The position numbers and the translations under genes are program-made. From contig CP061210.1 of assembly GCA_026016225.1 (NCBI GenBank), forward strand, positions 130,000-193,999: a stretch of DNA of 64,000 nucleotides, given 5' to 3'. This DNA comes from Candidatus Nealsonbacteria bacterium (GTDB taxonomy: Bacteria; Patescibacteriota; Minisyncoccia; Minisyncoccales; JANBVM01). This document shows positions 17,556-55,627 of the stretch, one piece after another (positions within the stretch are counted from its first letter, which is position 1; each line of letters begins with the position of its first letter). The notes under the pieces were generated by a model. It made no database searches, had not been told where the DNA came from, and saw only the letters and a list, made by a program, of their open reading frames with translations.

Positions 17556-17627
17556 AGCGGGCGAAGGGAATCGAACCCTCATCATGGCCTTGGAAGGGCC
17601 AGATAATAGCCGTTATACGACGCCCGC
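17556..17627 (-). tRNA. tRNA-Gly (anticodon UCC)
   Basis: The reverse complement folds as a cloverleaf. Acceptor is GCGGGCG/CGCCCGC, anticodon stem TGGCC/GGCCA with loop CTTCCAA, and T-arm GAGGG-TTCGATT-CCCTT. No encoded CCA. Confidence 0.85.
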
Positions 17628-17668
17628 AAATTCAGCGAAGGTGAATAGTTTTGCAAAGCAAAACTTAA

Positions 17669-17739
17669 TCGGGGCACCCAGATTTGAACTGGGATTAAAG
17701 CCTCCCAAAGGCCTCGTGCTACCATTACACCATGCCCCG
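17669..17739 (-). tRNA. tRNA-Pro (anticodon UGG)
   Basis: Reverse complement: acceptor CGGGGCA/TGCCCCG, anticodon stem AGGCC/GGCTT with loop TTTGGGA, and T-arm CCCAG-TTCAAAT-CTGGG. Confidence 0.85.
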
Positions 17740-17911
17740 ATAAAAATTCTAATTCAATTCCGAATTTTATCACTTTGTTCTTCTTGCGTCAATGAAAGGA
17801 AAAACAGCTAATTGCCTTTATAAATTATCTTTGTTTTCTTTACACTTTATTTTTGGCTGGTTTAATGTTATATTGGGCAGAGGGCGGTAAACGTAATACA
17901 GGTGAAAGTAT

Positions 17912-17985
17912 GCCCTCGTAGCTTAATTGGAAAAAGCAGGACCCTTCTAAGGTCAAGAGTGCAGGTTCGATTCCTGCCGAGGGCA
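17912..17985 (+). tRNA. tRNA-Arg (anticodon UCU)
   Basis: Acceptor GCCCTCG/CGAGGGC, D-arm GCTT-AATTGGAAA-AAGC, anticodon loop CTTCTAA, and T-arm GCAGG-TTCGATT-CCTGC. Confidence 0.85.
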
Positions 17986-53220: not shown

Positions 53221-54021
53221 TTATCTTATTTTTGGTAATAAATCAAATTTTTTTATTTTCTTTTTTAAAAATAAGATTGTTATAGCGGAGAATACAGCTA
53301 AGGCCAGGGCAATTAAAAAAACATCAGAAGAATCAGGCTTCTCTTCAAAAACCTGTTTACCGACAGCAGCTAATCCCTCTTTTTCAGCTTCTTCCTCTTT
53401 TTTATCTTTCGGCTGTTCGGTTTCTTTCACAATTTCCAGAAACCCTGCTTCTATGGATTTTAAGCTGTTTTTTGTTTTTGGTGTACCGCCAGAATTTTGG
53501 GAGATTTGCCAATTTTTAGAATTATTTCCAGTAAGCTGGGGGCTTTTTCTTTCCATTGTTTGTTTGGTAGAGTTGTCGCCCGCAAACCAGTCATTAGTAC
53601 AACTTACCTCGTCAATTAGATTATTTTGTTTATCAAGAAGCTTTAGATACTCTCCTTTATTATTTAAAGCCCCGGTATATATTTGGTCAGCCACTATATC
53701 AGGAAGAGTAGTATCATCAGTTCTTTCTAATAAGTAAAAACCCTTACCGGGGATTATTCCTGTAAGGTTAATTTCTGGAGTGCCGTCAGCGGCTTTTAGC
53801 GACCATCCATCAAGATTTATTGATAAATCGGTATTATTATATAGCTCAATCCATTCGTCACTATATGAAGTTTTAGTACCCATCCATGCTATTTCGTTAA
53901 CAACAATATCAAAGGGACTAGCTGCTTTAACAGGAAGTGTAATAAAAATTAAAAGCAGTATTATACCTGCTTTTAATATAGAAGATAAAAAGGTAGTGGG
54001 AGGGGTTGACAAATTTTCCAT
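53221..54021 (-). CDS. lamin-tail-domain (LTD) surface protein with N-terminal signal and C-terminal TM anchor
   Basis: IVVNEIAWMGT...DEWIELYNNTDLSINLDGWSL matches the LTD pattern. Hydrophobic segments are present at both ends. Confidence 0.65.
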   Translation of the reverse strand: MENLSTPPTTFLSSILKAGIILLLIFITLPVKAASPFDIVVNEIAWMGTKTSYSDEWIELYNNTDLSINLDGWSLKAADGTPEINLTGIIPGKGFYLLERTDDTTLPDIVADQIYTGALNNKGEYLKLLDKQNNLIDEVSCTNDWFAGDNSTKQTMERKSPQLTGNNSKNWQISQNSGGTPKTKNSLKSIEAGFLEIVKETEQPKDKKEEEAEKEGLAAVGKQVFEEKPDSSDVFLIALALAVFSAITILFLKKKIKKFDLLPKIR

Positions 54022-54048
54022 AATATATTAAAATAAAGAATATAAATA

Positions 54049-54172
54049 GAGCCCCAAGGCTGGGGGTTGGGAGTTTTTCTTAGTCGGATAACTTGGCTCA
54101 GGCTGAGTTACTCCTCGGAAAAATTCTAAGCTTTGCGTTCCTAATACCTAGTGACCCCCAGCCTTGGGGCTT
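54049..54172. other. GC-rich structured element closed by a 16-bp perfect stem (candidate ncRNA or miniature inverted-repeat element)
   Basis: GCCCCAAGGCTGGGGG (54051-54066) pairs perfectly with CCCCCAGCCTTGGGGC (54155-54170) around an 88-nt core that contains further pairing (CTTAG/CTAAG, GGATAAC/GTTACTCC). The surrounding intergenic DNA is AT-rich. Confidence 0.5.
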
Positions 54173-54173
54173 T

Positions 54174-55511
54174 TTACTCTTCGCCTGTTACCCGTTCTAC
54201 TTCTTCAATAGTGGTTATTTTTTCTAAAACCTTTGTCATTCCGTCTTGATACATAGTAATCATTCCTTTTTTTATCGCTTTTTCTCTTAAAGCAGCGATG
54301 GAAGGAAAAGTTAAAATAAGTTTTTCTAATTCATCATCAATTAAGAAAGCTTCATATAATCCGGTTCTTTCTCGATAACCGGTAAAATTACAATCTTTAC
54401 AACCTACGGCTTTAGGAATTTTTATCTCAGGTTTTATTTTCCAACCTTTATTTATTTTTGGAATATCCTTTAAGGCTTTTTTAAGCTTTTTTAAATCAGA
54501 AGGCGAAATTTTTTCAAGTTTAAAACAGCTTTTACAGACCTTTCTGACAAGCCTTTGAGCAATAGCTATATTTATAGCCGGAGCTATATTAATCGGTTTT
54601 TCTCCTAAGGCCTGCAGTCTGGCGATTGTACCGGCTGCATCATTTGTGTGTAAAGTGGTAAAAACCAGATGTCCGGTTAAAGCAGCTTGAAGAGCGATAC
54701 TGGCTGTCTCCAAATCCCTGATTTCTCCTACTAAAACAACGTCAGGGTCCTGACGCATAATAGACCTTAGACCATTAGCAAAATCATAACCTTTAGCAGG
54801 ATTTACCTGGGTCTGAGAGATGCCTTTTAAGTGATACTCAATCGGGTCTTCGATAGTAATGATTTTGTTTTCTGGCTTTTGAACTTTTTTTAAAAAAGCA
54901 TATAAAGTAGTAGTTTTACCAGACCCCGTAGGGCCTGTAACTATCACCATGCCGTTAGGTTTTTTTATTTCTTTATTAACGAGTTTCAATAAATCTTCTC
55001 TTAATCCTAAAGTTTCCAGGTCAATTAAACTTTTAGGGTTTAAGATTCTCAGGACTATTGTTTCTCCATACTCTGTTGGAAGGGTGGAGGTTCTAATCTC
55101 TATCATATAAGATTTTGTTATAGCTTTTGTCACATCTTCTGGTATTAAAACAGAAAATCGGCCGTCCTGAGGCCGATCATCAATATTTAACTTAAGCCCT
55201 GAAACAAGCTTAATTCTTGAAACAAGTTTTTGATATATTTTTTTGTCGATAGAAAAAACATCCTGTAAAAGACCGTCAATCCTAACTCGGATTTTTACCT
55301 CTTTTTCTTTAGGTTCAATATGAATATCAGAAGCGCCTAAATTAATCGTTCCCCCTAAAATAATCTCCAAGAGTTCAGTCAGTCTTCCCTTTAAAGAATC
55401 TTCAATTTTATCTTTAAAAGAGGGAAGGTTTTTTATTTCTTTTTGGATTTCAGTTAGAATCTCAGTAGGGATTATTACTTGCCCCGTAATCTTTTTTGAA
55501 ATTTCAGGCAT
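54174..55511 (-). CDS. GspE/PilB-family type II/IV secretion (type IV pilus) ATPase
   Basis: Walker A GPTGSGKTT, the Asp box, Walker B VVLVGEIRD, the His box, and a C-terminal Cys cluster (CKSC...CKDC). Confidence 0.85.
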   Translation of the reverse strand: MPEISKKITGQVIIPTEILTEIQKEIKNLPSFKDKIEDSLKGRLTELLEIILGGTINLGASDIHIEPKEKEVKIRVRIDGLLQDVFSIDKKIYQKLVSRIKLVSGLKLNIDDRPQDGRFSVLIPEDVTKAITKSYMIEIRTSTLPTEYGETIVLRILNPKSLIDLETLGLREDLLKLVNKEIKKPNGMVIVTGPTGSGKTTTLYAFLKKVQKPENKIITIEDPIEYHLKGISQTQVNPAKGYDFANGLRSIMRQDPDVVLVGEIRDLETASIALQAALTGHLVFTTLHTNDAAGTIARLQALGEKPINIAPAINIAIAQRLVRKVCKSCFKLEKISPSDLKKLKKALKDIPKINKGWKIKPEIKIPKAVGCKDCNFTGYRERTGLYEAFLIDDELEKLILTFPSIAALREKAIKKGMITMYQDGMTKVLEKITTIEEVERVTGEE

Positions 55512-55627
55512 AAGAGTTTAAAATGAAAATAATCTAAAGGTTAATTAATTGAATTTATCTCATTCTTTTTAAAAAGTCAATCTTGAGGAGAGATTATAAT
55601 CTCCCTTAAAAATTTTTAGACAAGTAA

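Follow-up and report, generated by a model that had tools for sequence, protein, structure and literature searches.

Cis-antisense RNAs that converge on a protein gene, overlap its 3' end, and share a bidirectional terminator with it are known from the RNA II/RNA I (fst) pair of the Enterococcus pAD1 par system and from the RatA/txpA and SR4/bsrG pairs of Bacillus subtilis. Bidirectional intrinsic terminators between convergent genes are also known in bacteria, and comparative genomics has yielded orphan conserved structured noncoding RNAs (ncRNAs) such as the raiA motif RNA and OLE RNA. The candidate phyla radiation (CPR; also called Patescibacteria) makes up a large share of bacterial diversity; we are aware of no lineage-specific ncRNA described for it. 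Here, we analyze a GC-rich element between pilB and a gene for a lamin-tail-domain (LTD) protein in a 64,000-nucleotide stretch of a Candidatus Nealsonbacteria genome (contig CP061210.1; hereafter, the window). The element very probably represents an independent gene for a structured small RNA (sRNA), transcribed from the plus strand and belonging to a new family. That family is real and well supported in Parcubacteria-type CPR bacteria and is present neither in Rfam nor in the literature that we searched.

The locus resembles the fst, txpA, and bsrG pairs in that a small RNA with its own promoter is predicted to be transcribed toward the 3' end of a protein gene, overlapping it at the terminator, so that the RNA is perfectly complementary to the mRNA 3' end. 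The antisense RNAs of those pairs, however, target small toxin mRNAs, have narrow distributions, and lack an elaborate conserved fold. Here, the partner is a pilus/secretion ATPase gene, the overlap region is a covarying three-way-junction RNA, and the pairing is kept across a whole Parcubacteria-level clade. A type I toxin-antitoxin system was rejected, as the partner is a 445–amino acid T2SSE ATPase and not a small toxic peptide. As in bidirectional terminators, a GC-rich helix that is A-rich on one side and T-rich on the other lies between convergent units, and the GC-rich stem is immediately followed by a U-tract, as expected of an intrinsic terminator. Ordinary terminators, in contrast, have loops of 3 to 8 nt, whereas a conserved, structured interior of 86 nt with a dedicated promoter is found here. 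A simple-hairpin terminator was rejected on this basis, and the terminator is one part of a larger RNA.

Similarities to 6S RNA (RF00013 and related families) include a promoter of the type seen for abundant RNAs, a mostly helical structure, a long stem closing the 5' and 3' ends, a G-C-rich stem beside an asymmetric central region, and a small 3'-side hairpin. Unlike 6S RNA, the element is ~135 nt rather than ~180 nt and has no Rfam match even at E = 10. Its 5' junction strand is only 1 to 7 nt, opposite a 3' side formed by one hairpin (P4, below) and a few nucleotides, and it therefore has no open-promoter-like central bubble of the 6S type. Like the raiA motif and OLE RNAs, it is recognized by covariation, conserved loops, and a lineage-wide range, with no biochemical function assigned. 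It differs from them in being much smaller, in occurring only in Parcubacteria-type CPR, and in being tied, in antisense, to one neighboring gene.

Fold and covariation of the element

The original prediction rested on a perfect 16-bp inverted repeat, extended by a flanking pair, in otherwise AT-rich intergenic DNA. We find that the repeat is perfect over a full length of 18 bp (54050-54067 and 54154-54171), with 86 nt between its arms. The 16-mer GCCCCAAGGCTGGGGG occupies 54051-54066, and 54155-54170 is its exact complement. These are its only two sites in the 64-kb window, whereas shuffled sequences gave a mean of 0.10 matches and none of 100 shuffles gave two. The contrast in base composition also holds, with a GC content of 0.47 in the element versus ~0.30 to 0.37 in the window. 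The plus strand of the element folds at −66.1 kcal/mol (z = −6.1 against dinucleotide shuffles). At its right end, the coordinates agree with the earlier description of an arm that abuts the pilB stop codon. TTTTT follows directly 3' of the element on the plus strand (54171-54175), and this tract overlaps the stop codon, which is the complement of 54174-54176. The features of the locus are as follows.

54006-54011, plus strand: −35 box, TTGACA (consensus scan; promoter scores 11/12).
54019-54024, plus strand: conserved spacer motif, (C)ATAAT; its complement contains the ATG of the divergent LTD gene.
54029-54034, plus strand: −10 box, TAAAAT (family consensus TAtAAT, with a partly conserved TG before it).
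54041-54176, plus strand: predicted sRNA transcript, ~135 nt, both ends inferred (start ~7 nt after the −10 box; end at the U-tract after P1).
54050-54067, plus strand: 5' arm of the closing helix P1; its upper part, CUGGGGG/CCCCCAG, is nearly invariant.
54070-54080, plus strand: 5' strand of P2, GGAGUUUUUCU, from the minimum free energy fold.
54081-54085, plus strand: 5' side of an asymmetric internal loop, with UC (54115-54116) on the 3' side; sequence conserved, no supported partner.
54086-54114, plus strand: P3 hairpin, with 54086-54097 paired to 54102-54114, a bulge at C54111, and a UCAG loop (54098-54101).
54117-54127, plus strand: 3' strand of P2, GGAAAAAUUCU, inside the most conserved stretch, ACUCCUCGGAAAAAUUCUAA.
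54132-54151, plus strand: P4 hairpin, weak in the window member; 54132-54139 pairs with 54144-54151 around a conserved CCUA tetraloop (54140-54143).
54154-54171, plus strand: 3' arm of P1, from the inverted repeat and covariation.
54171-54175, plus strand: U-tract of the sRNA terminator, overlapping the pilB stop codon.
54174-55511, minus strand: pilB/gspE-family ATPase, 445 amino acids (Pfam T2SSE, E = 4e-115), convergent with the sRNA gene.
53221-54021, minus strand: LTD protein (Pfam LTD, E = 8e-13), co-directional with pilB, starting inside the sRNA promoter.

The predicted fold is a three-way junction composed of P1, a P2-P3 arm, and P4. In an alignment of 94 distinct sequences made with a covariance model, 95.6% of the cells in a 38-pair structure hold standard pairs, compared with 46 to 58% when pairing partners are slid by 1 to 3 columns. 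Both sides have changed in 30 of the 38 pairs, and none of 500 shuffles reached the observed values. From a plain MAFFT alignment, RNAalifold recovered 38 pairs, 27 of them compensatory. When the structure is extended to 48 pairs to include P4, 93.4% of cells remain paired (44 to 55% in slid controls), with 36 compensatory pairs. The top 15 column pairs by mutual information are all predicted helix pairs, and two further covarying pairs extend P1 and close the CCUA tetraloop of P4. Compensatory substitutions thus exceed those of the controls, as expected of a conserved structured ncRNA.

Compensatory changes were found in 16 of the 18 pairs of P1 (95.6% of cells paired), 7 of the 11 pairs of P2, 8 of the 11 pairs of P3 (96.4% of cells paired), and 5 of the 8 pairs of P4 (82.5% of cells paired). 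P4 recurs in nearly all members when its segment is folded alone, and its columns 132-137 covary (UA in 43 sequences, CG in 13). Near its tip, P3 has a conserved G-G or G-U mismatch, and its loop is variable among relatives (UCAG, UUCG, GAGA, or UUAG).

Three internal features had been proposed from the window sequence. The GGATAAC/GTTACTCC helix is real, covaries, and corresponds to P3. The central palindrome CTCAGGCTGAG is present, but it is merely the tip of P3 with its variable loop. The CTTAG/CTAAG helix was rejected, because it competes with P2, in which these bases pair instead, shows no covariation, and is left uncompensated in relatives that have GCAG for UUAG. The CUUAG segment itself (54079-54083) is conserved. 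We also considered a tertiary loop-loop pairing between the CUUAG internal loop and the CCUAA of the P4 loop, which had neither covariation nor a mutual-information signal. A hammerhead-type junction, a T-loop, an 11-nt tetraloop receptor, and a kink-turn were all judged by eye to be misfits: the strands of the junction vary, and P3 lacks a conserved GNRA loop. The bacterial small signal recognition particle (SRP) RNA (4.5S) was likewise rejected, as the apical loop of P3 is variable, with no conserved GNAR tetraloop, and P3 is continuous with one bulged C, in place of the symmetric and asymmetric internal loops conserved in helix 8 of that RNA. A small open reading frame (ORF) in the element was rejected too, since the plus strand has no ATG and the substitutions are pair-wise compensatory rather than codon-like.

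Promoter, terminator, and strand

A promoter overlooked by the original prediction precedes the element. In the window, it consists of TTGACA, a 17-nt spacer, and TAAAAT (54006-54034), a near-consensus arrangement with 11 of 12 matching positions. Among loci with enough upstream DNA, 93 of 94 have a promoter that matches at least 10 of the 12 consensus positions. TTGACA is invariant in all 93 of these, and the spacer is 17 nt in 90. From the end of the −10 box to P1, the distance is mostly 13 to 14 nt across loci. The family consensus, CTTGACAAAtTtttcATAAT.TgtTAtAAT, includes the partly conserved TG extension and the spacer ATAAT, which is found 8 nt past the −35 box and is conserved in 87 distinct promoters. 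The LTD start codon is the complement of 54019-54021 and thus falls inside the promoter spacer. In the 44 loci where an LTD gene is the neighbor, the −35 box, read on its complement, specifies the LTD N-terminus, M-x-N-L-S-S. Promoter and protein N-terminus therefore constrain each other. The spacer ATAAT (within 54012-54028 of the window) is nevertheless retained even where no start codon overlaps it, and for this reason it might be a binding site for a regulator.

A terminator-like signal follows P1. In the family as a whole, T makes up 74% of the 8 nt that follow P1, and 78 of 94 members have at least five T among the eight. The 9 nt before P1 are 49% A, which makes for a weaker U-rich tail on the pilB strand. 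The locus therefore carries, at the sequence level, both a promoter and a terminator of its own, as an independent sRNA gene should. Taken together, these features suggest a self-contained gene for an RNA of ~135 nt, spanning roughly 54041-54176. The covariance model match in the window covers almost the same interval (54040-54180; 138.5 bits).

Of the three readings in the original prediction (a small RNA, a 3' untranslated region (UTR) or leader structure on the pilB strand, and a miniature inverted-repeat element), only the small RNA has stood, given a promoter kept in 93 of 94 loci, a terminator after the closing helix, and a covarying fold. We consider it improbable that the functional RNA is instead the pilB-strand transcript, acting as a 3' UTR or intercistronic terminator, stabilizer, or processing site, with the plus-strand promoter incidental. 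That explanation would fit the position of the element directly after the pilB stop codon in every case, the stability of the mirror fold (−53.8 kcal/mol, z = −5.1, for the minus strand of the element), and downstream genes that are co-directional and have no room for their own promoter. The paired columns argue otherwise, with 349 G-U or U-G cells compared with 54 A-C or C-A cells. Of the 94 sequences, 87 retain the G-U pair of alignment columns 35/119, which would become a conserved A-C mismatch on the pilB strand. Folding of the alignment gives −62 kcal/mol and 43 pairs on the plus strand, but half that energy, −31 kcal/mol, and 26 pairs on the pilB strand, and single-sequence folding favors the plus strand in 93% of members, by ~10 kcal/mol. 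These pair counts and folding energies identify the plus strand as the functional one. The promoter, moreover, cannot be incidental, because in 93 of 94 loci TTGACA is invariant and both the spacer and the distance to P1 are fixed. The T-rich tail also lies on the plus strand (74% T, compared with 49% on the pilB strand). We give almost no credence to a mobile or repeat element, such as a miniature inverted-repeat transposable element with 16- to 18-bp terminal inverted repeats, even though the perfect terminal repeats and a GC content foreign to the AT-rich surroundings are what such an element would show. The covariance model finds a single copy in the 64-kb window and one per related locus, in an identical syntenic position adjoining pilB. 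No target-site duplication is seen: AAATAG on one flank and TTTTAC on the other share no direct repeat. Covariation of the arms is that of an RNA helix, conservation is higher in the interior than at the ends of the arms, and BLASTN against phage records found nothing similar to the element.

Distribution and linkage to pilB

A PilB protein search, restricted to one genome per species, returned 28 loci, all from Patescibacteria metagenome-assembled genomes (MAGs) and with PilB identities of 50 to 77%. Their titles name Nealsonbacteria, Wildermuthbacteria, Yanofskybacteria, Paceibacterales, and the Parcubacteria group. With nhmmer, the element was found directly after the pilB stop codon in more than 20 of the 28 loci, on the strand antisense to pilB each time. 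A covariance model built from 23 sequences matched 25 of the 28 at E ≤ 7e-10, with an additional weak match in L026. The same model had no matches in 64 unrelated viral control loci. A loose core pattern gave 64 matches in viral contigs, approximately the number expected by chance by our own estimate, and none of these fit the covariance model. In L014, the sequence ends 79 nt after pilB, and the locus is not assessable for the RNA.

Divergent forms were also seen. L025 (4290-4480) has a relative that was recognized by eye and missed by the model, with an AU-rich P1 of 25 bp and no P4. Wildermuthbacteria forms (L016:4245-4395 and L018:4327-4477) score only 45 to 50 bits, and another divergent form lies behind a more distant pilB (L013:4431-4576). 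The occurrence of such forms behind distant pilB genes indicates that the family is wider than the current model detects. In L027 (4330-4620), a run of N flanked by a duplicated sequence of ~55 nt separates pilB from the sRNA; this looks like a scaffolding artefact in the deposited MAG. An exact look-up of the PilB protein gave just one match, a short contig of run DRR463595 that added no context.

Linkage to pilB was also assessed independently of the protein, by scanning metagenome contigs with a DNA pattern drawn from the RNA alone (GGGGG, 40 to 64 nt, CTCCTCRRRRANNYTCTNA, 18 to 42 nt, CCCCC). The scan returned at least 120 loci. Among the matches listed, 118 are true members, and two (L156 and L205) are GC-rich false positives. 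Nine of the true members have no more than 110 nt to the end of their contig and were left out of the pilB count. A convergent PilB homolog (52 to 79% identity) is present in all 109 remaining true loci among the matches listed. The distance from the pilB stop to the base of P1 has a median of 6 nt. The geometry is convergent and 3'-overlapping, with the stop inside the U-tract or no more than 10 nt from it in 41 of 61 loci. Only in L148 (660-1600) are the two genes separated, by an insertion of ~940 nt that contains an ORF for an integrase-core-like fragment and a second, small ORF whose N-terminus resembles a signal peptide. An apparent gap in L201 is due to a frameshifted pilB, which is in fact adjacent.

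On the promoter side, the neighbor varies. For 82 loci among the matches listed, it is LTD in 44, RuvB in 24, YebC in 4, and others in 10. These genes are nearly always co-directional with pilB and start ~20 to 50 nt from the sRNA promoter, leaving little room for a promoter of their own. In the window, yebC and ruvC lie beyond the LTD gene on the minus strand. Within the 5' part of the LTD coding region, we observed a terminator-like hairpin followed by a T-run (53948-53977, minus strand; ATTAAAAGCAGGTATAATACTGCTTTTAAT TTTTATT). A weak, sub-threshold match to the RsaE model on this hairpin is probably due to chance. The best NCBIfam matches of the window PilB are GspE and PilB, both below cut-off because the canonical N-terminal domain is absent. 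The pilB gene has its own conserved promoter (TTGACTTTTT, then (G)ATAAATT), seen at 55512-55600 on the minus strand of the window and in ~60 matching loci. The pilB leader lacks a Shine-Dalgarno motif, and its final stretch has the consensus TTAATTTTAAAC(C/T)TTT-ATG. Just upstream of this promoter, a 22-nt overlapping palindrome (AATCTTGAGGAGAGATTATAATCTCCCTTAAAAATT; 55579-55614) lies between pilB and the divergent tsaE.

Known RNA families do not account for the element. At gathering thresholds, Rfam 15 identified three tRNAs in the whole window and no family for the element, in line with the earlier failure to match it by eye to SRP RNA, 6S RNA, transfer-messenger RNA, or a riboswitch. The genes for these tRNAs lie in a small cluster at 17556-17985, on both strands, and are the sole Rfam-recognized RNAs in the window. 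When 53900-54300 was searched at E values up to 10, the best match was a plant microRNA precursor model (21.5 bits versus a cut-off of 70), which reflects a mere likeness to a long stem. Full-text literature searches found no description of this RNA.

Possible roles and meaning

Transcription and every regulatory step proposed here are read from the sequence. The near-consensus sigma-70 promoter would start transcription near 54041, and P1 with the U-tract would end the transcript near 54176. With the two genes convergent and the stop codon of pilB overlapped by the U-tract, transcripts of pilB necessarily extend into the sRNA gene, and the sRNA is therefore perfectly complementary to the pilB 3' end and the spacer downstream of pilB. 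A highly expressed sRNA could then act on the pilB transcript in cis, both as an antisense RNA and as an insulator. The closing helix P1 may double as a bidirectional terminator; read on the pilB strand, it would be a second, weaker terminator or attenuator before the co-directional LTD or ruvB gene. Sense-antisense pairing would begin at the complementary P3 and P4 loops, and convergent transcription from the strong sRNA promoter may add to the effect. The combined outcome would be to set 3'-end formation, stability, and read-through into downstream genes for the pilB mRNA. We regard an sRNA gene that includes this cis-antisense and insulator mechanism as having an even chance of being correct.

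Several observations weigh against this mechanism. A pure antisense or terminator role does not explain the conserved unpaired CUUAG, UCCUCGG, and CCUA loop, the conserved G-G or G-U mismatch and bulged C in P3, or the selection for G-U pairs on one strand. Such features indicate that the folded RNA has a function in its own right, and conservation of unpaired nucleotides suggests an additional protein or other binding partner. The very stable closing helix makes full-length sense-antisense pairing kinetically slow. The ~940-nt separation in L148 implies that direct overlap is not strictly required, and the constant adjacency elsewhere could reflect two genes sharing one terminator in a streamlined genome. 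It is quite possible, if somewhat less probable than not, that the element encodes a housekeeping or trans-acting RNA that is unrelated to pilB (a ribonucleoprotein RNA, a protein sponge, or a small functional analog of 6S RNA), with adjacency arising from the shared bidirectional terminator. A promoter of the stable-RNA type (with a consensus −35 box that does not vary, a spacer of 17 nt, and a −10 box that is partly TG-extended) would suit such an RNA, as would the unpaired and non-canonical conserved positions, the strand-specific selection for the fold, a range spanning several candidate Parcubacteria lineages (Nealsonbacteria, Wildermuthbacteria, Yanofskybacteria, and Paceibacterales), and the one locus that tolerates an insertion between the genes. 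However, adjacency to pilB in 109 of 109 loci among the matches listed, while the other flank varies, is unusually strict for an unrelated pair. The lack of an Rfam match, 6S and SRP RNAs included, and of a 6S-type central bubble also argues against it, and no trans target emerged. Similarity between the pilB 5' UTR and the sRNA segment AAUUCUAAACUUU is marginal (mean local-alignment score of 6.3 versus 5.8 for 371 control start regions; p = 0.03) and provides only a weak signal. An RNAduplex scan of start regions in the window returned only the trivial antisense overlap with the LTD 5' region. Mimicry of the anti-Shine-Dalgarno sequence by CUCCUC/UUCCU is unlikely to matter, as only 3 of 55 window ORFs (at least 110 amino acids) have GGAG, GAGG, or AGGA in the region from −20 to −4 relative to the start codon; Shine-Dalgarno sites seem to be little used in this organism.

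We thus view the locus as a candidate convergent antisense sRNA combined with a bidirectional terminator that has been elaborated into a three-way junction. The partner gene, for the pilus ATPase, is part of the type IV pilus machinery, which is regarded as key to attachment to hosts and uptake of DNA in this group. A more speculative proposal, which we consider rather unlikely, is that Parcubacteria/Paceibacteria have in this RNA a core ribonucleoprotein or regulatory RNA that defines the lineage, either a mini 6S analog or a partner in pilus function and DNA uptake, with its locking to pilB reflecting functional coupling to pilus biogenesis in ultra-small episymbionts.

The comparative support for this family, with well above 100 members, abundant covariation, an invariant promoter, and a strict genomic partner, exceeds that of many curated Rfam families. 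It is a ready candidate for a new Rfam family and could be used as a phylogenetic marker. The family is also unusual as an example of a terminator hairpin that has become a conserved RNA with a three-way junction. For organisms that are hard to culture, the family offers a concrete, testable handle on RNA-based regulation.

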